Origin: Candidatus Pacebacteria bacterium GW2011_GWA1_46_10
GTDB lineage: Bacteria > Patescibacteriota > Microgenomatia > UBA1400 > PJMF01
Assembly (NCBI GenBank): GCA_001002135.1
Contig: LCLP01000001.1
Coordinates: 485,368 to 549,367, forward strand
Length of the DNA stretch: 64,000 nt
Direction of reading: 5' to 3'
Under the pieces are notes generated by a model that worked only from the letters and a program-made list of their open reading frames with translations, did no database searches and was not told the DNA's origin. Shown here piece by piece: positions 493 through 40,968 of the stretch. How positions within the stretch are numbered: position 1 is the first letter of the stretch; every line of letters starts with the position of its first letter. A program made the position numbers and the translations under genes.

Positions 493-1563
493 TCATGAAA
501 TGCGTTTGCCGAAGTGTTCGCGAGTGTGCATCACTAGCTGCTGTGCCACCGCTAAAAGGATCATGGTTGCCAACAGTGAACTCCCACCGTAAGAGACTAG
601 TGGTAAAGTAATGCCAGTAATTGGCAGTAGACCCACATTCATCCCGATGTTCACAAAAACTTGGGAGAGAAAATAGACAGCCGCTATCAAAAGAAAGAGG
701 GTATGACTGATTTGGTCCGTCTTACCAGCCTGATTGAGTAAAAACCCTATCAGGAGTGTGTACAGCAGGATGACCGCCACCGAGCCCACCAATCCCCATT
801 CTTCAGCCAATGAAGCAAAAATAAAGTCAGTTTGACGCTCCGGTAAAAACCGCAACTGCGACTGCGTGCCATGCCCTAAGCCACGGCCAAAGAGTTGCCC
901 GGCACCGACCGCAATCAGCGCTTGGCGGGCATTGTACCCCGTGTTACTTTGGTCAGCCTTACTCCCAGCCATAAAACTGGTAATCCGCTCTTGCTGGTAC
1001 GGTTCCAGCACCACCGCCCAACCAACCGCCATCAGTGCCACTATCCCAATAAAAAACCACCGCCAATACACTCGAGGAATTTTTTGCCAAATCAAGAGGG
1101 GAGCGACAGCGAGAGTATACAAAAACACCGTTCCAAAATCCGGCTGGAATAAAATAAGTAGTGCTGGAGTACCCAATAAAACCAACAGTTCAATCAGTTC
1201 GCGCTCACGCAGCATTCTTTGCTGAGTGAATCGTGCCAAAACGGCAAAAGTGGTCATCAGCACGGCAAACTGTGAAGGTTGAAAACGCAACCCCCACCCA
1301 AGGTCAATCCAGGCTGTCGCTCCCCGAGTGGCCCGACCAAAAATCAATAAGCCAACCAATATAATCACTAGGCCTTTCCAAGCCCAATCTCCCCATTTTA
1401 ACCACGCGCGAAGTGGTATCTGTGAAACAAACCAAAAGAGCGAAAAACTGGCCAACCAAAAAAACAGCTGACGGCGCATAAGATCAGGAGAAACGCTCGA
1501 CAGAGTCGCCAAACTCAGTAAGCTTAACGCCAAAGCAATCAGGGGAATAAACCATTTTTTCAC
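493..1563 (-). CDS. SEDS-family peptidoglycan glycosyltransferase (RodA/FtsW/SpoVE family), probably RodA
   Basis: 10-TM profile, conserved SEDS C-terminal region (...PLVSYGGSSLLATMILLAVAQ...); a second SEDS paralog sits inside the division cluster (9245-10396), so this one is the likely elongation paralog. Confidence 0.8.
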   Translation of the reverse strand: MKKWFIPLIALALSLLSLATLSSVSPDLMRRQLFFWLASFSLFWFVSQIPLRAWLKWGDWAWKGLVIILVGLLIFGRATRGATAWIDLGWGLRFQPSQFAVLMTTFAVLARFTQQRMLRERELIELLVLLGTPALLILFQPDFGTVFLYTLAVAPLLIWQKIPRVYWRWFFIGIVALMAVGWAVVLEPYQQERITSFMAGSKADQSNTGYNARQALIAVGAGQLFGRGLGHGTQSQLRFLPERQTDFIFASLAEEWGLVGSVAVILLYTLLIGFLLNQAGKTDQISHTLFLLIAAVYFLSQVFVNIGMNVGLLPITGITLPLVSYGGSSLLATMILLAVAQQLVMHTREHFGKRIS

Positions 1564-1580
1564 CCTGTTATCGTATCATC

Positions 1581-4415
1581 TTACTCAAGTAAAAGCGGCC
1601 CTTCACCTTTCACCAACTGCGTGCGGGTTTTTGTCTCAATCTCCGCTTGCCACCGGTCAGGCCAGTCAGGCAACTGCATTTTCGCCCGGTCACTGGCGGC
1701 CAAACCGGCCTCACGTCGCAGGTTTTGGATGGCACGGATGAGCTCTCGAGCCTCACCCTCTTCCTTTAACTCATTAGTGAGTTTCACATCCAACAAAACA
1801 GTCAGCGGTACATCCTGGGTAACTTTTCGCCATACTACTTTTTTGACATTGAGTTCCTGTCCAATCAGCGTCTGGAATCGTTCCACAGCGCGGGGAAGTT
1901 GGTTCTCTGAGACTGCTATGGTGACCGTAGTCAATGGTTGACGAACACGCACCCCATGTTCTTTGCGAGCAGCACGCCCAAGTTCTACCACTTTTCTAAC
2001 CATCGCCATCTCAGTTTCCAGTTGAGTGTCTCGCAGCGCTTGATCAACCGACGGCCAATCAGTTAAATGAATGGAAGTTTGATCGTCAACTAAATTGTGG
2101 TGAATGAGTTCGGCAAAGAAAGGCGCGAATGGCGCGAAGAGTTGGGCCAGTGTATACAGCACATAGCCCAACACTTGGCTTGGCTCTTGGTTATTCTCAG
2201 CCTTCAGCCGCTCTCGACTCAACCTGAGATACCAGTTTGAAAGATCGCTGACAAATTCCATGAGAGTGCGACTCGCACGTACCAAATCATAGCTGTCCAT
2301 GAAGTCAGTGGTTTGTTGTATTAACGTTTCCAGTCGACTGAGTATCCATCGATCAAGGATGTGCTCTGGTTTATTAGGTTGAGTCGGCTGGGTTTGCTTG
2401 GCAAAGGTTTGATAGAAACTGACCACGTTCCACCAAATAACAAAAACTTTTCGGCGAATATCGGCCACCTCTTTTTGGTTAAAATTGATGTTTTCTGCCT
2501 TCATCACCGCTGAACTCATCAGGTACAGTCGCAAGCTGTCCGAGCCGTATTGGTCAATCAATTTCAGCGGATCGGGGAAGTTTTTCTTAGACTTGCTCAT
2601 CTTGGAACCGTCCTCAGCCAAGATAGTGCCTGTCGTCAGTGCATTATTAAATGCATGAGTCCCAAAAATTCCCACAGAGATAACATGCATCGTATAAAAC
2701 CATGCTCGAGTTTGGGCAATATATTCACTGATAAAATCCGCCGGGTAATTGCTGTCGAATTCGGCCACATTTTCAAATGGATAATGTCTTGAAGCAAACG
2801 GCATTGAGCCAGACTCAATCCAACAATCAAAGACTTCAGGGATGCGTTTTCCCTTAATTGTTTTGCCATCGTCAACCCAGAGTTCAATCTCATCAAGAAA
2901 TTCACGATGTAAATCAATCAATTTACTAACTTGTTTGGGATCGACTGCCCACTCTTTCAATTCATCCATTGAGCCAACAATCCGTCGTGCGAGTTCGCCG
3001 CTTTTATCTTTACCAACCCAGATCGGCATCGGTGTCCCCCAATAACGGGAGCGGGAAATGTTCCAATCAGGCGCATTCTCCAAACCGTAGAGGAAACGGC
3101 CATACTTGAGGTGTTCCGGCACCCAGTTGATATCTTCATTGTGGTCAATCAACTGCTCCTTGATTTGTTGGATATTAATAAACCAAGCGGGGAGGGGAGC
3201 ATGATAAAGCCGAGTGCCGCAGCGATAACAGACTGGTACACTGTGAGTTAGTGGTTCTTCTTTATAAATCAACCCACGCTGTTTAAGCTCTTCATTGATT
3301 AGGGGGTTGGCCTCCAAAATATTCATGCCCGCCCATGGCTTGACTGCCGCCTTGAGGTTGCCTTCGTCGTCAACGTGTTCGGCCAACTGCACGTCATGAG
3401 CCTTCATTACTCGGTAGTCATCCTCGCCATAGACGGCCAAAGTGACAATACCCGTGCCTTCTTGCCCCGTCACAAACTCATCAGCAATTACCACTCCCAC
3501 TTTATCTTGCGGACTACGCTCACCTTCATAAAAATCATAGTGTGGAGCAAATTGTAGTTTCTCTAAATCTCTGCCCTGATATCTTTCGACAATCTTAAAA
3601 TCACCCCGCAGCATCGTCAGCCGCTCTTGGGCTAAGATATAAAACTCATCATCCTGCTGGACTTTCACGTAATCCAGGGTTGGGCTTACCGCCAACGCTG
3701 GGGTGGCTAACTTATTCCAAGGAGTGGTTGACCACGCCAGTAAAAAAGTCTTGGGTTCACCAACTACTGGGTATTTATAGACTGTCGAAGTTTCAGCCAC
3801 GTCGGTGTAACTGTTATCCATGGCAATCTCAAAATTGGAGAGAGGAGTAGCGCAACGCGGACAATACAAAATGACTTTTTTGCCTTCATAGACCAAGCCT
3901 TTTTCCCAAAGTTGTTGAAAGCCCCACCAGACTGATTCCATGAAAGTTTGATCCATCGTCTTGTAGCTATGCTCAAAATCCACCCAGCGACCCAGTCGGC
4001 CAATCACTCGTTCCCATTCTTTATCCAAGCGCAGCACTTCCGTTCGACAAGCAGCGTTAAAGACATCAATCCCAAGCTTTTCAATTCCTTTCTTCCCACC
4101 TTTGATGTCCAGCTTTTGTTCGATGATGTTCTCAATCGGCAGACCATGACAGTCCCACCCCCACACTCGTTCCACCCGTTTCCCACGCATGGTTTGATAC
4201 CGTGGTACGACATCTTTTGTCGTTGAGGCCAACAAATGACCATAGTGAGGCATGCCAGTGGCAAACGGTGGGCCGTCATAAAAAACGTAGCTGTTGTCAG
4301 CCGGACGCGCTTTGACCGATTTTTCAAACGTCTTGTCTTGCCGCCAAAACGCCAACACTGCCTCTTCCAGTTTTGGTAAATCTGGTGGTTGATGAAAATG
4401 CGGTATCTTTGGCAT
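1581..4415 (-). CDS. ileS: isoleucyl-tRNA synthetase (type 2, eukaryote-like)
   Basis: class I HIGH motif PPFATGMPHYGHLL, KMSKS motif KMSKSKKN, about 945 aa; ATG at 4415-4413 preferred over the TTG at 4430 used by the ORF track; SD-like GAAAGG 7 nt upstream. Confidence 0.93.
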   Translation of the reverse strand: MPKIPHFHQPPDLPKLEEAVLAFWRQDKTFEKSVKARPADNSYVFYDGPPFATGMPHYGHLLASTTKDVVPRYQTMRGKRVERVWGWDCHGLPIENIIEQKLDIKGGKKGIEKLGIDVFNAACRTEVLRLDKEWERVIGRLGRWVDFEHSYKTMDQTFMESVWWGFQQLWEKGLVYEGKKVILYCPRCATPLSNFEIAMDNSYTDVAETSTVYKYPVVGEPKTFLLAWSTTPWNKLATPALAVSPTLDYVKVQQDDEFYILAQERLTMLRGDFKIVERYQGRDLEKLQFAPHYDFYEGERSPQDKVGVVIADEFVTGQEGTGIVTLAVYGEDDYRVMKAHDVQLAEHVDDEGNLKAAVKPWAGMNILEANPLINEELKQRGLIYKEEPLTHSVPVCYRCGTRLYHAPLPAWFINIQQIKEQLIDHNEDINWVPEHLKYGRFLYGLENAPDWNISRSRYWGTPMPIWVGKDKSGELARRIVGSMDELKEWAVDPKQVSKLIDLHREFLDEIELWVDDGKTIKGKRIPEVFDCWIESGSMPFASRHYPFENVAEFDSNYPADFISEYIAQTRAWFYTMHVISVGIFGTHAFNNALTTGTILAEDGSKMSKSKKNFPDPLKLIDQYGSDSLRLYLMSSAVMKAENINFNQKEVADIRRKVFVIWWNVVSFYQTFAKQTQPTQPNKPEHILDRWILSRLETLIQQTTDFMDSYDLVRASRTLMEFVSDLSNWYLRLSRERLKAENNQEPSQVLGYVLYTLAQLFAPFAPFFAELIHHNLVDDQTSIHLTDWPSVDQALRDTQLETEMAMVRKVVELGRAARKEHGVRVRQPLTTVTIAVSENQLPRAVERFQTLIGQELNVKKVVWRKVTQDVPLTVLLDVKLTNELKEEGEARELIRAIQNLRREAGLAASDRAKMQLPDWPDRWQAEIETKTRTQLVKGEGPLLLE

Positions 4416-7384: not shown

Positions 7385-8122
7385 TTACTCCTGGCTGTCG
7401 ATGAGAACTTGCCCAGAATCAGTACTCACCGTCGTCCGCAGCACCGGCAATTCAAAACGCAGGTCAAGCTCACGAATCGCCACATCGATCTCTCGCGGCC
7501 GCAACTGTTTGATAATAATGACCAGTCGCGCCGCCGCCAGTTTCGGGTCTTGCTGTAATTCTCCCACCACCAGCGGAAAACCCGGAATACGAACCTCTAT
7601 TCGCTCAACTGAAACAAGTGTGATTTGTGTCACCAGCGACCGATTTTCTCCCAAGGCATTGAGAAACTCGGTCAAAAACTGGTGCGTTGCCGGCTGTTCG
7701 TAGAGTTGGGCTTGATCAACTATCAATGGCACTCTTACTTGCTCATTATTTTCCCGGAAAACTCCTGATGCTGAGACGAGCCCAAGTTTTTCCCCCTGTT
7801 GAATTCTAAAAAGTGGTGGTTGATCAGAGAGGTAAAAAGTGACTCTGCCAGCCAGTGATTTTTCTAAGCGAATTAAGGTAAAAGTTTCTTTTGTCTCTGG
7901 TTCGTAAAGCAATGAGGCTATCATTTCATCTTGGTAAAAATCTCGAAAAAGGAGTCTCGTCCCAATGACTGCCTGCAACCTGGCACACACCCGAAAATCA
8001 TCATTCACTGTTTGATCATTAACCACACACTCCACCCGCCTAATGGTTGCTCCTTGGATGATGAGTGCCAAAAAAGCCACCACTATTCCCAATAAACTTG
8101 CCCAAAAAAGCAGTTTTTTCAC
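7385..8122 (-). CDS. ftsQ: cell division protein FtsQ/DivIB (POTRA-domain)
   Basis: single N-terminal TM helix then periplasmic domain; position between murG and ftsA; overlaps murG stop by 4 nt. Confidence 0.65.
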   Translation of the reverse strand: MKKLLFWASLLGIVVAFLALIIQGATIRRVECVVNDQTVNDDFRVCARLQAVIGTRLLFRDFYQDEMIASLLYEPETKETFTLIRLEKSLAGRVTFYLSDQPPLFRIQQGEKLGLVSASGVFRENNEQVRVPLIVDQAQLYEQPATHQFLTEFLNALGENRSLVTQITLVSVERIEVRIPGFPLVVGELQQDPKLAAARLVIIIKQLRPREIDVAIRELDLRFELPVLRTTVSTDSGQVLIDSQE

Positions 8123-14557: not shown

Positions 14558-15796
14558 ATGTCTAACCCACTAAACTTCACTCGTAGTGCTCTGGCTGGTT
14601 TCGGCTGGCAAACCATTTACAAGGGGATCTTAGCGCTGATCGCCATGGCCAAGATCGCAGTACTAGCTCGACTGCTCACTCCAGAAGCATTTGGCCTCTT
14701 CTCTCTTACGCTGATTGCTCTTGGTATAACTGAGAGCTTGACTCAAACCGGAGTGAACATCACCCTGCTACAAGCTCAACGACCGGTGAAATATTACCTT
14801 GATAGTGCTTGGGTTATCGCCATCATTAGGGGGTTTCTGATTGGCAGCATCATGCTGGTGATGGGGCTCTTGCTGCAAAACTACTACCAAGAACCACAAC
14901 TATTGGCGCTGATTGCGGTCGCCGCACTTGTCCCAGTCATCAAGGGATTCATTAATCCCTATATTGTGGTCTTGCATAAAGACTTACGCTTTTTCCAAGA
15001 TAGCGTTTATCGATTTTCACTGGTTTTTGTCGAAAGTGTGGCCGCCGTAGTCTTGGGGTTTTTGACTCACTCTGTTTGGGCTCTGGTTTGGGCGTTGTTG
15101 ATCAGTGCGTTGTTTGAGGTGGTGGTTTCTTTTTTCTTTTTCAGAACTCGGCCACACTTCGCGTACCTGCACTCAAGAGGGAAAACCATTCTTGAAAATG
15201 CGAAATGGTTGAGCGTCTCAACTTTGTTTAATTACCTCAATGAAAACGCTGATGACTTTTTGTTGGGAAAAATCGTAGGCACACGATTCTTGGGAATCTA
15301 TCACAACGCCTATGCCTTAAGTCACAAACCAAACTATGATTTTTCCAAATCCGCTCACCACAGCACTATTCCGGTGTTTACCAAACTGGCTGACAAACCA
15401 ACCCGGCTGACAGGCGCTTTTCTCCGGTCGCTGGTGGCGCTCACCAGTTTTATCACCATCGTTTCACTGCCTTTATTACTGTTTCCCCGATTCTTCGTTG
15501 AGTTACTCCTCGGCCAACAATGGCTTGACGCCATTCCATTGGTCCGACCGCTTGTTTTGGCAGGCATTATCCAGAGTGTAAGCCAGTTAAGTTATGCTTT
15601 GTTTCTGGCTCGCAAACAATACCGTATTCTCAATCTTCACTTGAGTACTGCTTTTGGCCTGATGGTTGTTCTTGTTTTCTGGTGGGGCAGCCAAGCACAC
15701 TTATTGGGGGCAGTGATGGGAGTACTCACTGCCCGTCTGGTTACCATTCCTCTCATTTTGATTGGTATACTGCAAACGCTTAAACAAAAATCATGA
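14558..15796 (+). CDS. polysaccharide biosynthesis protein / oligosaccharide flippase (Wzx-like, MOP superfamily)
   Basis: 412 aa, about 12 TM, N-terminal region typical of PST-family flippases (…GFGWQTIYKGILALIAMAKIAVLARLLTPEAFG…). Confidence 0.75.
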   Translation: MSNPLNFTRSALAGFGWQTIYKGILALIAMAKIAVLARLLTPEAFGLFSLTLIALGITESLTQTGVNITLLQAQRPVKYYLDSAWVIAIIRGFLIGSIMLVMGLLLQNYYQEPQLLALIAVAALVPVIKGFINPYIVVLHKDLRFFQDSVYRFSLVFVESVAAVVLGFLTHSVWALVWALLISALFEVVVSFFFFRTRPHFAYLHSRGKTILENAKWLSVSTLFNYLNENADDFLLGKIVGTRFLGIYHNAYALSHKPNYDFSKSAHHSTIPVFTKLADKPTRLTGAFLRSLVALTSFITIVSLPLLLFPRFFVELLLGQQWLDAIPLVRPLVLAGIIQSVSQLSYALFLARKQYRILNLHLSTAFGLMVVLVFWWGSQAHLLGAVMGVLTARLVTIPLILIGILQTLKQKS

Positions 15797-16554
15797 AAAC
15801 CAGCAGTGTTCCTGTCAGCGTCATTATTCTCACGCACCGCAGTGATGAGCGGTTCGTGCGCGCGCTTGCCTCGGCTCAACCGGCCAAAGAGGTACTGATC
15901 GTCGATTTCAACAGCAACAATGACTGGCATCAGTTACAAAAACAATTTCATTTCAAATATACCAATCAACCCACGCAGATCCGCAATTTTTCTACTGAAC
16001 GCAACCGCGCTTTACAACGAGCGCATCATGAGTGGGTATTTTTTTTGGACAGCGATGAAGTCATTAGAGGGGATAGTTGGGGTGAGATCGAACATATTAT
16101 TCGCAGTTCAGAGTTTGACGGGGTGTACGTGCGTCGAAGAGATTTGTTTCACGGTAAAATGCTCCGTCATGGTGAAACAGGGAGTACGTGGGTGCTCCGA
16201 CTGATGAAAAAGAGCGCGAGTCAATTTACCCGCCCAGTCCACGAAATAGCTCAAGTCAAAGGAAAAACTGCTCGTTCAAAAATCGTCCTTCTCCACAACG
16301 CTCACCTTTCACTAACCGAGTTTTTAACTGATATTACTCAATACGCCAAACTCGAGGCAGAGTATCAAACCGACGCCAAACTCCCTCTCTCACTCTTGGG
16401 CGTCAAGACTGTTCTTTATCCCAAGTTAAAATTTCTCGTTAATTACTTTTTAAAACTTGGTTTTCTTGATGGCTGGCGGGGAGTGGCCTACGCTGTCATG
16501 ATGAGCCTGCATTCTCTCTTTGTCAGAGTTTTTGCCTATGAAAATCGTCAGTAA
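15793..16554 (+). CDS. family-2 glycosyltransferase
   Basis: VSVIILTHRSDE (GT-A N-terminal), DxD-type motif FFLDSDEV; start overlaps flippase stop (ATGA). Confidence 0.8.
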   Translation: MKTSSVPVSVIILTHRSDERFVRALASAQPAKEVLIVDFNSNNDWHQLQKQFHFKYTNQPTQIRNFSTERNRALQRAHHEWVFFLDSDEVIRGDSWGEIEHIIRSSEFDGVYVRRRDLFHGKMLRHGETGSTWVLRLMKKSASQFTRPVHEIAQVKGKTARSKIVLLHNAHLSLTEFLTDITQYAKLEAEYQTDAKLPLSLLGVKTVLYPKLKFLVNYFLKLGFLDGWRGVAYAVMMSLHSLFVRVFAYENRQ

Positions 16555-17704
16555 GCTGTTTGTTCATCCTGAAACTCTCCTTTTTACTGGCTTTTTAGTG
16601 CTTTTCTCATTTGGCCAACTACAACGTATTCAACTCACCAAAGACATCGCCATCTATGGGCACGACATCTTGATTACTTACTTCGTCCTATGGCAATTAC
16701 TGACCAACAGCAAACTTCGCCAAGTAATAGTCAACACCTTTCACATGACAAAAAAAATAATCTTGACTCATCAACTTGAGGCTGCTTGGGTAACGTGGGT
16801 GATCGGTGGCATGATCGCGGGGGGTTTGACCGGCCGAGTGACAGTCCGCGGTTGGTTGTACCTTGGGCGTTTACTGATGTACCTTGCTTTCATTGTTTTG
16901 ATCAAACAAAATAAGCGCACACGATATTCGCCAAGAATTGGCTTGGCTGTGGTCAGTGTACTGATTGCCGGCTGGGGCTTACTACAATACGCCCTGATGC
17001 CTGATGTCCGGTGGCTGAATATTTTTGGCTGGGATAACCACTACTACCGATTGATCAGCACCTTATTTGATCCTGCTTTTACTGGCATACTGTTGGTCAT
17101 TGGCTTTGGGCTGTGGCAACTGCCGACCGTATTACCTCAACTCTCCGTCCAACTCAAACGGGCCATTCAACTGATACTCACTGTCGCCCTGGCCGCTACC
17201 TTTTCACGCGCCAGTTACCTCGGGTTTTTGGTTCTTAATGGGTTTTTCTTGCTCACCAAAAAAATAAAACTCTCGTTCGTGGCGATAGTGATCACAGTAT
17301 TTTGGGCAACCCTCTTTTTACTCCCCAAACCTGGTGGGGAGGGGGTTAATTTAGCCCGTACCAGCACCGGTGAGGCGCGGCTAATCAATGCTCAGGAAAA
17401 CTTGATTAAGCTCAACGGCGCGCAGTGGCTTTGGGGCAGGGGACTGTTTAACACCGATGCCGCACAAGCCTATCAAACTCCCAGCCACGCCCAGCTGCCG
17501 GACAGTCTCCCAGTGTTATTGACTAACTCACTTGGGCTTGGTGGGGTGTGGCTGACACTCACGGTACTCATCAAGTGGCTTAAAAACTGGTGGCAAACCA
17601 AGCCTGTTTGGACCGGTCTTTTACTGACTGTTCTGATCCACAGTCTCTTTAATAATACCTTTTTCCAGCCATTTGTTTTTCTGGCTCTTTGGCTGGCGTT
17701 TTGA
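16520..17704 (+). CDS. O-antigen ligase/polymerase-like membrane protein (Wzy/WaaL family)
   Basis: about 10 TM plus one larger loop containing ...TFSRASYLGFLVL... (O-antigen-ligase-type motif); follows GT2 in the same orientation. Confidence 0.55.
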   Translation: MSEFLPMKIVSKLFVHPETLLFTGFLVLFSFGQLQRIQLTKDIAIYGHDILITYFVLWQLLTNSKLRQVIVNTFHMTKKIILTHQLEAAWVTWVIGGMIAGGLTGRVTVRGWLYLGRLLMYLAFIVLIKQNKRTRYSPRIGLAVVSVLIAGWGLLQYALMPDVRWLNIFGWDNHYYRLISTLFDPAFTGILLVIGFGLWQLPTVLPQLSVQLKRAIQLILTVALAATFSRASYLGFLVLNGFFLLTKKIKLSFVAIVITVFWATLFLLPKPGGEGVNLARTSTGEARLINAQENLIKLNGAQWLWGRGLFNTDAAQAYQTPSHAQLPDSLPVLLTNSLGLGGVWLTLTVLIKWLKNWWQTKPVWTGLLLTVLIHSLFNNTFFQPFVFLALWLAF

Positions 17705-17714
17705 AAACCAAGAT

Positions 17715-18428
17715 TTAATAGCGGAAATTGATGGTAACTGTCCGTTCAGTTCGATTTCCAGCCTTGTCAGTGACCACAAACCGTAAAGTATTGTTGCCTT
17801 CTTGAAGATAATAGGAAGCACTAAACGTGCCATCACTACTGACATAGACGCTGCGGTCATTAAGGGTGAGTTGTGAATCAGGTTCTGTCTCACCTCTGAT
17901 TTGGAGGGTCTGGTTTTCCCTCAAAGTAATTTGTTTGCCATCTGCTAAATCCTCAAAACTCAAGCTTGGAGTTTGAGTATCACGGATAATCAGCACTGTT
18001 CGACTATTTGACTGATTGCCAGTTTCATCCACACCATACACATCAATGGTGTTATCGCCATCCATTAACTCGAGCGTGTAAGAAAATTGACCATCACTTT
18101 TCACTTTTGTTTTACCAACTTCATCACCATTGCGCACGACCACCACCTGACTGTCTGGCTCACCATAACCCGCCATTTCCAGTGTTGCCTCTTTCGTCGC
18201 CTCGGGTAAGGTTGATAAAACCGGTACTTGAGGGGGCACAGTGTCACTGGTAAGAGGACTCAAATCACCGGTGCCAAAAAGGCGGAAAAAGAGCTGTACT
18301 ACCTGAGGCATGATCACAAAAATAAACAAAATCACCCCGAGAATGGCCAAAATGATCATTCTGGTTGACTGGCGGATAATTTTTTTACCTTGGCGGCGCG
18401 CCAGGCGAGAAGTGTATTGCCTTTGCAT
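17715..18428 (-). CDS. exported/membrane-anchored protein with two tandem Ig-like (Big-type) repeats
   Basis: basic N-terminus plus TM anchor, then two repeats of about 80 aa (…DSQVVVVRNGDEVGKTKVKSDGQFSYTLEL…NTIDV… / …DSQLTLNDRSVYVSSDGTFSASYYLQEGNNTLRFVV…). Confidence 0.5.
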   Translation of the reverse strand: MQRQYTSRLARRQGKKIIRQSTRMIILAILGVILFIFVIMPQVVQLFFRLFGTGDLSPLTSDTVPPQVPVLSTLPEATKEATLEMAGYGEPDSQVVVVRNGDEVGKTKVKSDGQFSYTLELMDGDNTIDVYGVDETGNQSNSRTVLIIRDTQTPSLSFEDLADGKQITLRENQTLQIRGETEPDSQLTLNDRSVYVSSDGTFSASYYLQEGNNTLRFVVTDKAGNRTERTVTINFRY

Positions 18429-18436
18429 AAATGCTG

Positions 18437-18509
18437 AGCCAGAACTGGGATTCGAACCCAGGACCTACGGTTTACGATACCGCCGCTCTACCAACTGAGC
18501 TATTCTGGC
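18437..18509 (-). tRNA. tRNA-Thr (anticodon CGU)
   Basis: cloverleaf GCCAGAA/TTCTGGC acceptor, anticodon loop AUCGUAA, T-loop GGTTCGAATCC; no encoded CCA. Confidence 0.9.
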
Positions 18510-18526
18510 TATCAGTGTACCACTTG

Positions 18527-18599
18527 AGCGGCGAACGGGGCTTGAACCCGCGACCTTCTGCTTGGGAAGCAGACGCTCTACCAACTGAGCTATCACCGC
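18527..18599 (-). tRNA. tRNA-Gly (anticodon CCC)
   Basis: acceptor GCGGTGA/TCGCCGC (one G-U), anticodon loop UUCCCAA, T-loop GGTTCAAGCCC. Confidence 0.9.
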
Positions 18600-18610
18600 A
18601 AACAAACCGA

Positions 18611-18616
18611 TTATAG
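18611..18616 (-). promoter_or_regulatory. -10 box TATAAT 8 nt upstream of the tRNA-Gly(CCC)/tRNA-Thr transcription unit
   Basis: minus strand aaactgcTATAATcggtttgtt followed by the tRNA 5' end. Confidence 0.5.
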
Positions 18617-18649
18617 CAGTTTTTACTCTGGTACTACCTCATCCTTTGC

Positions 18650-18678
18650 ATTGACATTATAGGACATAAATGCTACGA
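18650..18678 (+). promoter_or_regulatory. sigma70-like promoter (TTGACA-17 nt-TACGAT) heading a leader of about 180 nt
   Basis: TTGACAttataggacataaatgcTACGAT; its -35 overlaps a minus-strand TATAAT (divergent overlapping promoters). Confidence 0.45.
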
Positions 18679-18686
18679 TTTGATCC

Positions 18687-18860
18687 TGTTTATGACACAA
18701 TGACCCGACAAAATGCGTTGGGTTTTCTTGTTTCATAAACCGCACATTAACATGTGGTTTAAGAGCGAAATTTTCTCCTTAATTTGATCCGCTCAGGTTG
18801 CCCATTAACTTTGTGAGCAGCCCGAGCGGAATCAAATTAAGTTCAACGGAGGTTGAAATA
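18687..18860 (+). promoter_or_regulatory. long structured 5' leader (candidate riboswitch / cis-regulatory RNA, class unknown)
   Basis: about 175 nt untranslated leader before a small transporter-like gene; 14-bp inverted repeat AATTTGATCCGCTC(18781-18794)/GAGCGGAATCAAATT(18824-18838) with internal alternative pairing GCUCA/UGAGC; second hairpin AAACCGCACAU-UAAC-AUGUGGUUU at 18738-18760; RBS GGAGG at 18848-18852. Confidence 0.35.
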
Positions 18861-19370
18861 ATGAACACGCAGTTGAAAAATTTGTTTCGGTGGCTTTCCA
18901 CCGCGGCACTCTATGTGCTCTCCACTGTCGGCCTATCGGCCGGCATTGGAGCCACATTATCGTACGGCGTTAGCGGAGTTCCTGTGGACGCTTTTACGAT
19001 AAAGCCAGAGTTCGCCTGGTTCCTTGGTTTTCTCATTAGTTTAGTCATTCAATGGTGGGAGACGGATTGGTTCCTTCACCCGCAAGAAATGACCGAACTA
19101 GAGAAAATTCTGGTGCCAATCTTTTTGTTGGTGGATGCACAAATGATTTTTACTGCCCTGGGGGGCCATCTTAACATCCTTTGGATGTTAGAGAATGGTG
19201 ACAATACACCTGGGATGATTGTCCATACCCTCGGTTTGGTTGGACAACTCATCGGAGCCTTCCTCGGGAGTATCGGTGCCGAACTGTCACTTAAGAAAGC
19301 TTTGGGGGTCAACACTCCCGAACTCTGGCGATACCTGTTTGGCAAAGTCAAGGTCAACTCCATACATTAA
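18861..19370 (+). CDS. small polytopic membrane protein (4-5 TM, about 170 aa), possibly an ECF-type/QueT-like substrate-capture component
   Basis: ATG 18861 preceded by GGAGG; hydrophobic segments LSTAALYVLSTVGLSAGIGATL, FAWFLGFLISLVIQWW, ILVPIFLLVDAQMIFTALGG, MIVHTLGLVGQLIGAFLGSIGA; family assignment is a guess. Confidence 0.6.
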   Translation: MNTQLKNLFRWLSTAALYVLSTVGLSAGIGATLSYGVSGVPVDAFTIKPEFAWFLGFLISLVIQWWETDWFLHPQEMTELEKILVPIFLLVDAQMIFTALGGHLNILWMLENGDNTPGMIVHTLGLVGQLIGAFLGSIGAELSLKKALGVNTPELWRYLFGKVKVNSIH

Positions 19371-19402
19371 GGAGAAGAAAAATCAAAACCACACGCAATA
19401 AG

Positions 19403-19446
19403 GGCAGGGATCCACCCGCTCCGGTCGAAAGACTGGGATCTCTGCC
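19403..19446 (+). other. stable hairpin with GAAA tetraloop in the intergenic region (possible terminator/processing site)
   Basis: outer stem GGCAGGGATCC/GGATCTCTGCC (one mismatch), inner stem CCGGTC-GAAA-GACTGG; no T-tract follows. Confidence 0.3.
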
Positions 19447-19471
19447 TGCAACACCTGAGAATATTCCTTTA

Positions 19472-19477
19472 TATAAT
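19472..19477 (+). promoter_or_regulatory. -10 box TATAAT 6 nt upstream of dus ATG (leaderless-type promoter)
   Basis: cctttaTATAATatctttATG. Confidence 0.5.
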
Positions 19478-19483
19478 ATCTTT

Positions 19484-20551
19484 ATGAAAAATCTAGGCTT
19501 TTGGCACGAGCTGAAAAAACCAATCGTCGGCCTCTCACCGATGGACGGTGTGACAGATTATCCTTACCGGCATATTCAGAAAAAATACGGCCATCCTGAT
19601 GTGGTCTATACCGAGTTTGCCACGGTGGAGGGGTTTTGCCGTGGTGTGGAGAAAGTGTTGGATGATTTTCTTTATGACGAAGCGCAGCGACCGATCGTGG
19701 CCCAGATTTACGGTACCACTCCAAAGTTTTTCCGCGAAACAGCCACCGCTTTGTGTCAGTTAGGCTTTGATGGCATTGATATCAATATGGGTTGTCCGGC
19801 TAAAAGTGTGGCACACAGTGGGGCGGGAGCAGCTTTGATCCTTACCCCGAAGTTAGCTCAGCAAATCTTGAAAGCGACCAAGGCTGGGGTGGGGGATTGG
19901 CAAAACGGGAAAACCGTTCGTGATTGCTCACATATCACTCAGAAACTGACTCAAGAAATCGAGAGACGTCATCAACAACTGCCCAAAAAATATCAACAAC
20001 ATGATCGACCAATCCCCGTGACCGTCAAGACTCGCGTGGGCTTTGACATTAAGGTCATCCAAAACTGGATCAAGACGTTACTGGAAATCGAGCCTGTGGC
20101 CATTGCCATTCATGGTCGAACACTTAAACAAGGATATGGCGGTACAGCCGATTGGGAAGAAATCGGCAAGGCCGTGCAAACCGCCAAAGGCTCAAATACG
20201 ATGATTTTTGGTAATGGTGATGTGCATAGTCGTCAACAAGCACTTGAAAAGGTCAAACAGTATAGCGTTGACGGTGTTTTAATTGGCCGGAGTACCTTTG
20301 GCAACCCTTGGGTCTTTCAGGACCAGGAAGTTGACATTCACACCAGCGCCGGTGTAGCCGTTGAACATAGCCAGTTTTTCGAAGACATTTTTAAACACCG
20401 GGAAAACTACCGTTTTTTACCCATGCGCAAACACCTCGGTTGGTATATCAAAGGCATTCCCAATGCCACCGATATCAGGGTGCAGCTAGTCCAAGCCGAT
20501 AGCGCTCAACAAGTGCACGATATTTTGAAAAGTCACCAATTAATTTCATAA
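19484..20551 (+). CDS. dus: tRNA-dihydrouridine synthase (Dus family, FMN TIM-barrel)
   Basis: IVGLSPMDGVTDYPYRHI (Dus N-terminal signature), conserved Cys/Lys region, about 355 aa. Confidence 0.88.
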   Translation: MKNLGFWHELKKPIVGLSPMDGVTDYPYRHIQKKYGHPDVVYTEFATVEGFCRGVEKVLDDFLYDEAQRPIVAQIYGTTPKFFRETATALCQLGFDGIDINMGCPAKSVAHSGAGAALILTPKLAQQILKATKAGVGDWQNGKTVRDCSHITQKLTQEIERRHQQLPKKYQQHDRPIPVTVKTRVGFDIKVIQNWIKTLLEIEPVAIAIHGRTLKQGYGGTADWEEIGKAVQTAKGSNTMIFGNGDVHSRQQALEKVKQYSVDGVLIGRSTFGNPWVFQDQEVDIHTSAGVAVEHSQFFEDIFKHRENYRFLPMRKHLGWYIKGIPNATDIRVQLVQADSAQQVHDILKSHQLIS

Positions 20552-20559
20552 AAGAAAAA

Positions 20560-20583
20560 GCCCCGCCGAAGCGGGGCTTTTTT
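20560..20583. terminator. bidirectional intrinsic terminator
   Basis: AAAAA-GCCCCGC-CGAA-GCGGGGC-TTTTTTT; lies between convergent dus (+) and a minus-strand gene; a second small hairpin GATAGC-CGAA-GCTATC follows at 20584-20599. Confidence 0.8.
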
Positions 20584-20610: not shown

Positions 20611-20973
20611 TTAAGGTAATTCAACAGGCAGTTGAGCAGCTAACATGATCTGGCTAATCTTTTTTACCACTTTCTCGGCCTTTTCCATAGTGGTTGACAC
20701 CAAGTGCCTTTCAAAGTAGGTTCGAAAAACCAGATAGGCTACTCGCTCTTCGTTGCGTTCAGAGCCAAGCTCAACGACGAAAGATTCAATTACTTCGTAC
20801 CCCAATAACTCCGCAGCACGATGAGCTTCAAAAGAGACCTCGATGAGGATTCCTTCTACCACCGTTTGCTCTAGAGTCCGGGTAAGCGCTCGGCCGTTCA
20901 AAACTTGGGCGTCCTGTCCTTCCTTTAACTTAGCCACGTTTCCATCTCCTTTTGATCCTCTAGAAAGTCCCAC
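20611..20973 (-). CDS. hypothetical protein (120 aa)
   Basis: ORF only; no recognisable motif; divergent from the 21202 gene. Confidence 0.4.
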   Translation of the reverse strand: MGLSRGSKGDGNVAKLKEGQDAQVLNGRALTRTLEQTVVEGILIEVSFEAHRAAELLGYEVIESFVVELGSERNEERVAYLVFRTYFERHLVSTTMEKAEKVVKKISQIMLAAQLPVELP

Positions 20974-27903: not shown

Positions 27904-27976
27904 TGCCAAGCTGAAGAATCGAACTTCAATCTCATGTTTTTCAGACATGCGCCGTGACCACCTTGGCTAGCTTGGC
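27904..27976 (-). tRNA. tRNA-Phe (anticodon GAA)
   Basis: acceptor GCCAAGC/GCTTGGC, anticodon loop CUGAAAA, T-loop TTCGATTC. Confidence 0.85.
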
Positions 27977-28006
27977 ATCCTCAAACGTCTGGTTTTCAAA
28001 AAACCG

Positions 28007-28080
28007 TGGACTCGAGAGGGCTCGAACCTCTGACCTTCCGGATGTAAACCGGACGCTCTAACCAACTGAGCTACGAGTCC
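28007..28080 (-). tRNA. tRNA-Val (anticodon UAC)
   Basis: acceptor GGACTCG/CGAGTCC, D-arm GCTCAGTTGGTTAGAGC, anticodon loop UUUACAU, T-loop GGTTCGAGCCC. Confidence 0.9.
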
Positions 28081-28098
28081 GCATCAAGTCACTTTCCG

Positions 28099-28180
28099 TG
28101 CCCAGGAGAGGAGTTGAACCTCCAAGGATTGCTCCACAGCCACCTCAAGACTGCGCGTCTACCAGTTTCGCCACCTGGGC
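28099..28180 (-). tRNA. tRNA-Leu (anticodon GAG), class II with long variable arm
   Basis: acceptor GCCCAGG/CCTGGGC, anticodon loop UUGAGGU, long variable arm, T-loop GGTTCAACTCC. Confidence 0.85.
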
Positions 28181-28204
28181 ATTCAGCCTCTCCATGAGAG
28201 TGTG

Positions 28205-28278
28205 AGCGAGAAACGGGACTTGAACCCGCGACCTTCTCCTTGGCAAGGAGACGCTCTAGCCAACTGAGCTATTCTCGC
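28205..28278 (-). tRNA. tRNA-Gly (anticodon GCC)
   Basis: acceptor GCGAGAA/TTCTCGC, anticodon loop UUGCCAA, T-loop GGTTCAAGTCC. Confidence 0.9.
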
Positions 28279-28348
28279 GCTAGACAGTCAATTATATCGT
28301 AAAAAAACTAACTATTAACTTTTAGCTTTTCACTGTCAACTATCCTTG

Positions 28349-28431
28349 TGCCAGAGGAGGGAGTCGAACCCTCACACCCTTGCGAGCACTAGTTCCTGAA
28401 ACTAGCCTGTCTACCATTCCAGCACTCTGGC
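28349..28431 (-). tRNA. tRNA-Leu (anticodon CAG), class II
   Basis: acceptor GCCAGAG/CTCTGGC, anticodon loop UUCAGGA, long variable arm, T-loop GGTTCGACTCC; TATAAT -10 at 28443-28448 on the minus strand. Confidence 0.88.
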
Positions 28432-29277: not shown

Positions 29278-29351
29278 TGCCTCAGTAGCTCAGTGGATTA
29301 GAGCGCAGGTCTTCGGAACCTGGCGTCGGGGGTTCGAATCCCTCCTGAGGC
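29278..29351 (+). tRNA. tRNA-Arg (anticodon UCG)
   Basis: acceptor GCCTCAG/CTGAGGC, anticodon loop CUUCGGA, T-loop GGTTCGAATCC; TATAAT at 29263-29268. Confidence 0.9.
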
Positions 29352-29358
29352 ACAACAA

Positions 29359-30309: not shown

Positions 30310-30386
30310 GGGCCAGTAGCTCAGTCGGTTAGAGCACCTGCCTCTTAAGCAGGGTGTCCTGGGTTCGAGTCCCAGCTGGCTCACCA
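30310..30386 (+). tRNA. tRNA-Lys (anticodon CUU), CCA encoded
   Basis: acceptor GGGCCAG/CTGGCTC, anticodon loop CUCUUAA, T-loop GGTTCGAGTCC, 3' ACCA present in the DNA. Confidence 0.9.
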
Positions 30387-40764: not shown

Positions 40765-40837
40765 TGCGAGCCCGACCGGGATCGAACCGGCGATCTCTTC
40801 CGTGACAGGGAAGCATGTTAACCACTACACCACGGGC
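40765..40837 (-). tRNA. tRNA-Asp (anticodon GUC)
   Basis: acceptor GGGCCCG/CGGGCTC (one G-U), anticodon loop CUGUCAC, T-loop GGTTCGATCCC. Confidence 0.88.
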
Positions 40838-40968
40838 CCCACAGAGGCGCAATTATGCGCTGCGCTACAATGCTTGCGCATTATAGAAAGAAACCGCTGT
40901 TTTCGCCAGTGTTGGTGGAGCAGATTTGCTATACTAAAGCAGTAGTTATTTTTAACAAAGGAGTTTTT

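Follow-up and report, generated by a model that had tools for sequence, protein, structure and literature searches.

What is the long leader doing in front of an orphan membrane-protein gene of Candidatus Pacebacteria bacterium GW2011_GWA1_46_10? The gene is an open reading frame (ORF) of 169 amino acids (aa) at 18861-19370, plus strand, in the 64,000-nucleotide (nt) stretch of contig LCLP01000001.1 that was analysed here (the window), and the leader lies in the interval between two minus-strand tRNA genes and this plus-strand ORF. A first reading, made from the letters of the DNA (the sequence-only reading), had taken the leader for a candidate riboswitch, with a protein operator as the fallback. 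We find that the leader is conserved above the neutral level, that the transcript has a plus-strand structure with covariation in three hairpins, P1, P3, and P4, and that its 5' and 3' regions carry complementary sequences that covary. The explanation we favour, at roughly even chances, is an RNA frame that is self-contained, acts in cis, and encloses the small membrane-protein gene, with the leader as its 5' half; control would be at the RNA level, with no ligand sensed.

Orthologous loci were recovered via the ORF and its Dus neighbours: L001, L003 (with the near-identical L004-L007), L008, L016/L017, and L018. A covariance model of P1, box 3, and P3 found a seventh leader in L023 (54.8 bits, E = 2.8e-9). 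Two alignments were used, A6 with six W-clade sequences and A10 with L023 added, the latter a model-based alignment of 7 sequences. Four-fold degenerate sites are saturated between the orthologous genomes (identity 0.24-0.44), and identity at third codon positions of the ORF is 0.25-0.54 along the whole gene. Despite this, the leader keeps 75% mean column identity and long invariant blocks, even in comparison with L016 and L018, whose ORFs are just 39-43% identical to that of the window. The purifying selection on the leader is therefore stronger than that on the protein. The invariant positions are those of the P1 inner stem, the P3 base, and box 3, and the loops and apical P3 vary. Gathering the orthologous leaders and checking their pairings thus gave a conserved leader in which P1 and P3 covary. 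No other copy of the leader motif was found by covariance-model search within the window, a metagenome pattern scan for the P3 base returned just the orthologous locus and chance coding matches, and scans of genome contigs by DNA pattern and by protein returned nothing. In the collections searched, the motif occurs solely with this cassette.

All the sequence features that the sequence-only reading had described are there, beginning with those at the start of the transcript. The promoter TTGACA-17-TACGAT lies at 18651-18679 on the plus strand, one base off the coordinates first noted, and has an extended -10 (TG-n-TACGAT). The promoter scan scores it 10/12 with TG, among the best promoter matches within 20 kb. 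It is present in 8/8 cassette loci with TTG and TAnnnT retained, and its spacer motif TATAGG is likewise conserved. The proposed long leader is confirmed, with 181 nt from the end of the -10 element to the ATG at 18861, as is the Shine-Dalgarno (SD) sequence GGAGG at 18848-18852 (plus strand). In the window, and only there, the SD sits in the loop of a small hairpin; this hairpin is not conserved in relatives, and no other part of the leader is as poorly conserved as the region of the ribosome-binding site (RBS). The fold of 18686-18870 has an energy of -70.7 kcal/mol (z = -7.5; 0/200 shuffles as good). A long, structured leader of a membrane-protein gene was thus correctly recognised, and it proves to be conserved and, as judged from its pairings, to be a plus-strand RNA. 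The statement that it belongs to no known class also stood: Rfam 15, run on the window at gathering thresholds and at E <= 10 and on four orthologous loci at E <= 1, gave only tRNAs and chance matches, and its models match neither the window leader nor the orthologous ones. A repeat, ATTTGATCC, seen at the -10/start site and again in P3, was dropped because it is absent as a conserved feature in L003, L016, and L018.

P1 is a two-tier hairpin at the 5' end of the transcript (18688-18740, plus strand), marked by both conservation and covariation. Its outer stem pairs 18688-18700 with 18728-18740, a U-rich tail against an A-rich 5' arm, and encloses a GC-rich inner stem-loop (18702-18724) followed directly by UUUUCUUGUUU. 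The inner stem is near-invariant and the loop variable. In A6, 95% of the cells of P1 are paired and 0/500 shuffles match the covariation score; with L023 added, 6/12 outer pairs change on both sides. P3 is a long hairpin at 18778-18841 (plus strand), recognised by its fold and its covariation. The inverted repeat AATTTGATCCGCTC / GAGCGGAATCAAATT of the sequence-only reading is real and forms the basal part of this 64-nt hairpin. The P3 base, GATCCGCTC / GAGCGGAWTC, is nearly invariant, whereas the apical part differs completely between sub-clades yet is always paired and covarying, and 12/26 P3 pairs in A10 change on both sides. For P1 and P3 together, A10 has 91% of cells paired, against 31-44% with the partners slid, and 18/46 pairs change on both sides; 0/500 shuffles reach any of these measures. 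A10 was fitted to a covariance model, and an independent MAFFT alignment of P1 agrees. G-U pairs are frequent on the plus strand and would be A-C mismatches on the opposite strand, and the structure is therefore that of a plus-strand RNA rather than of a DNA operator. The operator fallback is disfavoured further by the sequence between the palindrome arms, which covaries as a hairpin. The conserved neighbourhood contains no regulator gene. The P1 stem also matches the integron attC motifs RYYYAAC/GTTRRRY; its arms are only 6-7 nt apart and there is no integrase, and we treat the match as one of chance.

The position and anatomy of P1 bear on how the gene could be controlled. P1 begins about 2 nt after the expected transcription start. 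Its inner hairpin folds at -10 kcal/mol in the window and at -6.7 to -10 kcal/mol over the loci, and in 8/8 loci the inner stem is followed by a run of at least 4 U that is unpaired within the outer stem. P1 was flagged as terminator-like in a scan, having the GC-rich stem of at least 5 base pairs (bp), the short loop, and the immediate 3' U run of a terminator. Its predicted anatomy is that of an intrinsic terminator or attenuator.

Between P1 and P3 lies box 3, TTAACATGTGGTTT (18747-18760, plus strand), which is identical in the six close loci except for its last base in L016. Box 3 is also the 3' arm of the second hairpin of the sequence-only reading, here called P2 (UAAACCGCA / UGUGGUUUA; 18736-18761, plus strand). 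P2 does exist in the window and comes out of the folding of the loci as an optional local hairpin. It forms in the window, L016, and L018, and partly in L003, but L001 and L008 are unable to form it, and it is not conserved. Both the lower P1 outer stem and the long-range helix described below are in competition with it. The alternative pairing GCUCA/UGAGC fared similarly; its two strands are present (GCTCA at 18791-18795 and TGAGC at 18814-18818), but only the window has this pairing. The riboswitch proposal had leaned on mutually exclusive helices beside the RBS, and these are thus not conserved in relatives. The spacer before P3 contains an anti-SD-like segment, TTCTCCTTAAT (18773-18783, plus strand), only in the window, L001, and L003, and the spacer is deleted in L016 and L018. 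Two further ideas about this part of the leader were rejected. An upstream ORF starting at the AUG in box 3 varies in length, its peptide is unconserved, and L023 has no AUG there. As for a T-box, L023 lacks UGG, and the terminator comes before the box.

The leader has a counterpart downstream of the ORF. The spacer between the ORF and the next gene, dus, is 113 nt long and as conserved as the leader. Just past the stop codon it contains a 3' box, AAACCACA (19386-19393, plus strand; AAACCACATG in relatives), and AAACCACA(T/C)G is the reverse complement of box 3. In the long-range 5'-3' helix that these sequences would form, positions 18753-18760 of box 3 are the 5' strand and the 3' box is the 3' strand. 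The window-clade helix is CATGTGGTTT / AAACCACATG, of 8-14 bp in the six close loci and 14 bp in L018. Beyond it stands P4, a 3' hairpin (19402-19447, plus strand) recognised by covariation and conservation. Its 12-bp stem covaries, its asymmetric internal loop, ACCCGCUC, is invariant, and a tetraloop caps its second stem of 4-5 bp; four P4 pairs change on both sides across 7 loci. Immediately 3' of P4 is TGCAACACC (19447-19455, plus strand), of which GCAACAC is invariant in six W-clade loci; the element is missing from L023 and from cassette-less relatives. A second long-range helix extends the box helix in the window, L001, and L003 only. Its 3' strand, ATTAAGGAGAA (19366-19376, plus strand), spans the stop codon and is an 11-nt perfect complement of the spacer segment at 18773-18783, a match equalled by 2/5000 shuffles.

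The strongest argument for the 5'-3' complementarity comes from two loci in which both strands differ. In L023 the leader box is AGTAGTTGATA, and its perfect 11-nt complement TATCAACTACT lies just before the L023 P4, which is followed by a U run. In L026 the helix is ATGTTGGGT / ACCCAACAT, with ACCCAACAT in the 3' untranslated region (UTR). The 3' box has thus undergone compensatory changes in both, and complementarity is kept in three compensatory versions (window clade, L023, and L026) at homologous positions. Depending on the locus, the longest Watson-Crick run is equalled by 0-118/5000 shuffles. In folds of the full-length transcripts (about 740-1090 nt), the helix coexists with P1, P3, and P4, is part of the minimum free energy structure of 7/8 loci, and has a pair probability of 0.85-0.98 over the loci (0.85 in the window). 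RNAduplex run on whole UTRs gave stretched, unrealistic duplexes with non-significant scores, and restricted segments gave a usable result.

L026 deserves separate description. Its ORF is a distant homologue (24% identity), and the architecture is seen here again, in an extended -10 promoter, a hairpin with its U run, the sequence TTTAACATGTTGGGT, and a long hairpin whose base is GGAATCA; P3 is remodelled. L026 also has a perfect 16-bp leader-3' UTR duplex, GTTGGGTTCACCTGGC / GCCAGGTGAACCCAAC (3072-3087 and 3880-3895), whose leader strand lies 17 nt upstream of the SD and which competes with the 9-bp pairing of box 3 and 3' box. It is the only locus with 3' UTR pairing near the SD. When the L026 leader is folded by itself, an upstream CUCCUUU sequesters the SD.

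Some resemblances within the transcript were noted alongside these pairings. The P3 5' arm (GATCC-GCTC-AGGT, 18786-18794) and the P4 5' strand (GATCC-ACCC-GCTC-CGGT, 19409-19421) are direct near-repeats, and the P2 5' arm AAACCGCACA resembles the 3' box AAACCACACG. The 3' element thus mimics the 5' arms of the leader hairpins, possibly for strand displacement, for a shared protein, or as the trace of an old duplication. Pairing of the P4 loop with the 3' arm of either P3 or P1 was discarded, as it amounts to just 5-6 bp and has no independent covariation. A P4-loop motif at window position 8032 falls within a coding region and is a chance match.

Several observations weigh against the cis-acting frame. 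Random 765-nt pieces of the window gave predicted end-to-end helices in 7/16 trials, and thermodynamic prediction of the helix is weak by itself because random segments show such helices often. The case for the long-range helix is therefore one of covariation, drawn from only three lineages. The helix of the window is the weakest, at 8 bp followed by an A-C mismatch. In the window clade it is also clear of the SD (18753-18760 versus an SD at 18848). The predicted accessibility of SD and AUG with and without the 3' region shifts inconsistently among loci, the SD being opened in L001, the AUG in L026, and neither in the other loci; no consistent effect on translation is predicted across them. 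For this reason, and because the anti-SD-like spacer is confined to a sub-clade, we rejected the idea that only the full-length mRNA is translatable through an anti-SD freed by its 3' end, and regard it at most as an addition within that sub-clade. At P1, no conserved helix that could act as a competing cis antiterminator was found, only the A-rich outer arm lying upstream, and regulated read-through would therefore need a trans factor. The leader model score for L026 is not significant (13.4 bits, E = 0.85). Finally, pairing leaves the fixed sequences of the P1 inner stem, the P3 base, box 3 UUAAC, and the P4 loop unexplained. That the stems and the P4 loop are so strictly invariant suggests one more partner, perhaps a protein or a further pairing.

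The cargo of the frame was described by the sequence-only reading as a small gene with four to five transmembrane segments, and the ORF does encode 169 aa with four hydrophobic/helical segments. Selection acts on it at the protein level, with amino acids conserved while third codon positions are saturated. Residues E67, D92, and E141 are invariant, and the conserved charged residues in predicted helices also include H103. The likeness to ECF-S/QueT transporters found no backing: the ORF has no match in Pfam (E <= 0.1), NCBIfam, PHROGs, PADLOC, or PDB. Among the ORFs of relatives the sole weak signal is GtrA (E = 0.02), below the cut-off. The family consists of only 10 clusters among 1.84 billion representatives, and the protein of the window is 100% identical to hypothetical protein UY13_C0002G0377 of Candidatus Pacebacteria bacterium GW2011_GWB1_47_8 (candidate phyla radiation (CPR)/Patescibacteria). 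An AlphaFold2 model of the ORF has a pLDDT of 52 and is too poor to base a fold search on.

Relatives with 71-77% Dus identity differ in the presence, absence, and orientation of the cassette. In L023, a close relative by Dus, the whole cassette is inverted between tRNA-Gly and dus (584-1330, minus strand), and its four-helix ORF of 183 aa has no detectable homology to that of the window (hhalign probability 5%). Over all loci the cassette ORFs range from 169 to 225 aa, with four helices. In L024 (1494-1710) and L021/L022 (L021 1-170), tRNA-Gly abuts dus at a distance of 33-60 nt, and promoter, leader, ORF, and 3' element are all missing. In L020 (380-1306), other small genes occupy the position of the cassette. 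Because frame and ORF are present, absent, or inverted jointly, they behave like one accessory module at a tRNA-adjacent variable spot.

If the frame acts in cis on its own mRNA, we would expect the following. Transcription would start about 2 nt before P1 from a strong promoter that looks constitutive. The P1 inner stem and U run would act as a moderate intrinsic terminator or attenuator, and in transcripts that read through, P1 would serve as a 5' cap. Box 3 would then pair with the 3' box past the stop codon and cyclise the mRNA. The outer end of the helix would bring P1 beside P4, the putative 3' cap, and its inner end would place the stop codon beside the region of P3, SD, and start codon. 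The net effect would be that a membrane protein which may be harmful is tightly controlled in its stability and translation, comparably to icaR or to mRNAs of the hok/aapA1 type. The start site, termination at P1, formation of the helix in vivo, and any direction of its effect on expression are what we infer from these features.

Would a ligand-binding RNA account for the same data? A new class of metabolite- or ion-binding riboswitch, with P1, box 3, and P3 as the aptamer controlling a transporter-like gene, would fit a long, structured, conserved 5' UTR before a membrane protein that matches no Rfam model, and the charged residues in the predicted helices (E67, D92, E141, H103) could suit a transporter or channel. 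The pattern of conservation, however, is the opposite of that of a typical aptamer, with stems conserved and loops and junctions variable. The terminator-like hairpin comes first, and with only about 2 nt upstream there is no room for a sensor. The proposed switching helices and the context of the SD are unconserved, leaving no conserved expression platform; a 20-nt spacer is dispensable (L016 and L018), and P3 is remodelled in L026. The motif is tied to this cassette in a single gene context, and in L023 the same frame surrounds an ORF of no detectable homology. A riboswitch is thus improbable. We give equally low credence to the idea that promoter and P1 are a separate small RNA gene of about 50 nt, with the downstream ORF expressed by read-through or from another start. 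A near-consensus promoter followed at once by a terminator-shaped hairpin, with stem and U run strongly conserved, would look like this, but there is no second conserved promoter between P1 and the ORF, P1 is always accompanied by box 3, P3, and the ORF and never occurs alone, and what varies in P1 is the loop, where a small RNA usually has its seed.

A reader of the leader other than a ligand is easier to reconcile with the data. RNase III acting in P3, or a regulator recognising the P1 stem, P3 base, or P4 loop, would explain why stem sequences are invariant although neutral sites are saturated; the P3 duplex of about 27 bp has a size fitting RNase III, and the P3 5' arm (GATCC-GCTC) and the P4 strand (GATCCACCCGCTC) have a direct motif in common that one protein could read. 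The 5'-3' complementarity would then be incidental or secondary. Yet three lineages show it covarying at homologous positions, for which protein binding does not account by itself, and the conserved neighbourhood holds no gene for an RNA-binding protein. We therefore consider this account unlikely, though a good deal less so than a riboswitch. The least credible alternative places function in the DNA, with the boxes serving either as paired operators or as inverted repeats through which a mobile cassette recombines or inverts, and the palindromes acting as DNA. Inverted repeats do stand on both sides of the ORF, close relatives either have the cassette, lack it, or carry it inverted at a single locus beside a tRNA gene, and the long-range helix is nearly without the G-U pairs that would assign it to a strand. 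Against this, the surroundings hold neither a recombinase nor a regulator; the cassette takes along promoter, P1, and P4 although these are external to the repeats; and the ORF keeps its orientation relative to its own promoter in 8/8 loci. The many plus-strand G-U pairs and the covarying stems of P1, P3, and P4 are an RNA signature, and a helix of 8-14 bp, with extra helices in some loci, suits RNA over a fixed protein site.

The cis-acting frame has precedents with which it can be compared. To our knowledge, few bacterial mRNAs with 5'/3' UTR pairing have been studied experimentally, and phylogenetic covariation is rare outside type I toxin systems. In hok/sok, the type I toxin mRNA is locked by 5'-3' pairing. 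The type I toxin mRNA of aapA1/IsoA1 is also locked by a long-distance 5'-3' interaction (PMC5416894). As in those systems, the architecture of the mRNA is better conserved here than the membrane protein that it encodes, the ends pair, and the cassette is accessory and variably present. Type I toxins are 30-50 aa long, whereas the cassette ORFs encode 169-225 aa with four helices under clear protein-level selection. A scan limited to sigma-70-like consensus promoters found no minus-strand promoter for an antisense antitoxin at 18300-19600, and the ORF contains no conserved block that might conceal one. A likeness in the pairing itself is offered by the icaR mRNA of Staphylococcus aureus, in which a 3' UTR sequence is complementary to the mRNA's own 5' UTR and the pairing has been proposed to control translation and stability in cis (PMC3868564). 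In icaR it is the SD with which the 3' motif pairs, and a site for RNase III is created (PMC3868564). Both mRNAs have complementarity between their own 5' and 3' UTRs, which in our case is kept in evolution. They differ in that the helix described here lies about 95 nt upstream of the SD (window clade) with no consistent predicted effect on it, and in that the evidence for its pairing is covariation.

P1 and the leader as a whole invite other comparisons. Hairpins at the 5' end can act as promoter-proximal terminators or attenuators, or as 5' stabilisers, examples being the ompA 5' hairpin and the left-end terminator hairpin of IS200. P1 resembles these in its position at the very 5' end, its stability, and its GC-rich stem with a U run after it. 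It differs in having no competing antiterminator, leader peptide, or upstream aptamer, and in its conserved second tier, the outer stem. Riboswitches share with this leader the long, conserved, structured 5' UTR before a membrane protein, but here there is no Rfam match, no conserved junction nucleotides or expression platform, and a single gene context. What sets this case apart from icaR and the type I toxins is that a promoter-proximal, terminator-shaped hairpin is integral to the arrangement, that the helix leaves the SD uncovered, that the ORFs are full-size, and that no antisense RNA is evident.

The cassette sits among genes whose own signals deserve mention. The two minus-strand tRNA genes are tRNA-Thr (18436-18509) and tRNA-Gly (18526-18599), and their likely promoter is an extended -10, TGCTATAAT, at 18610-18618 (minus strand), about 10 nt upstream of tRNA-Gly; its ATTATA is invariant among orthologues. 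Another minus-strand TATAAT, at 18659-18664, is located in the cassette promoter, inside its spacer. L026 and L023 likewise have the TATA(G/A)G motif of that spacer, and because it is kept there with no tRNA gene on that side, it may be part of the cassette promoter itself. On the other side, 3' of the ORF, dus (19484-20551) encodes the Dus tRNA-dihydrouridine synthase. It is seemingly leaderless, with a TATAAT at 19472-19477 that is invariant in all orthologues and ends 6 nt 5' of the dus ATG (19484), and its start has no SD. Cassette-less relatives retain the arrangement TTTAAT/TACAAT-N6-ATG before dus. Between dus and a convergent ORF (20611-20973) is a bidirectional, canonical intrinsic terminator at 20555-20582 (AAAAAGCCCCGC-TTCG-GCGGGGCTTTTT, -20.6 kcal/mol), and standard terminators are therefore in use in this CPR genome. 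The window holds eight more tRNA genes (27904-28431, 29279-29352, 30310-30383, and 40767-40839), five of them in the minus-strand cluster at 27904-28431. Upstream of the tRNA genes, at 14558-17704 and 17715-18428, are a polysaccharide-synthesis-type gene set and a secreted protein with Big/Glucodextranase_B domains. Polysacc_synt-like, glycosyltransferase family 2, and Wzy_C-like proteins make up the set, and the synteny is kept in relatives. The GtrA-like signal of some ORF homologues, weak and below threshold, could point to a role of the four-helix protein in the cell envelope.

Taken together, the locus is compact, at about 770 nt, and open to testing; its helix exists in three natural compensatory versions, and it comes from an uncultivated lineage with reduced genomes. 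It also carries a caution, since a structured leader before a small membrane protein is not always a riboswitch. That the RNA architecture outlasts its protein cargo points to a modular cassette over an ordinary gene leader. We put forward, tentatively and as a reading more likely wrong than right, that it is a portable RNA "expression frame" of CPR bacteria that is more conserved than its cargo. Such a frame would consist of the promoter, the 5' terminator-hairpin, the cyclising boxes, P3, and the 3' hairpin, and would carry small four-helix membrane proteins without detectable mutual homology, in either orientation, at a tRNA-adjacent hot spot. If this holds, the locked-mRNA logic of type I toxins would reach as far as full-size membrane proteins, and the frame could be a new kind of cassette with an accessory, addiction, or defence function, or else a device that closes the loop by bringing stop and start codons together.

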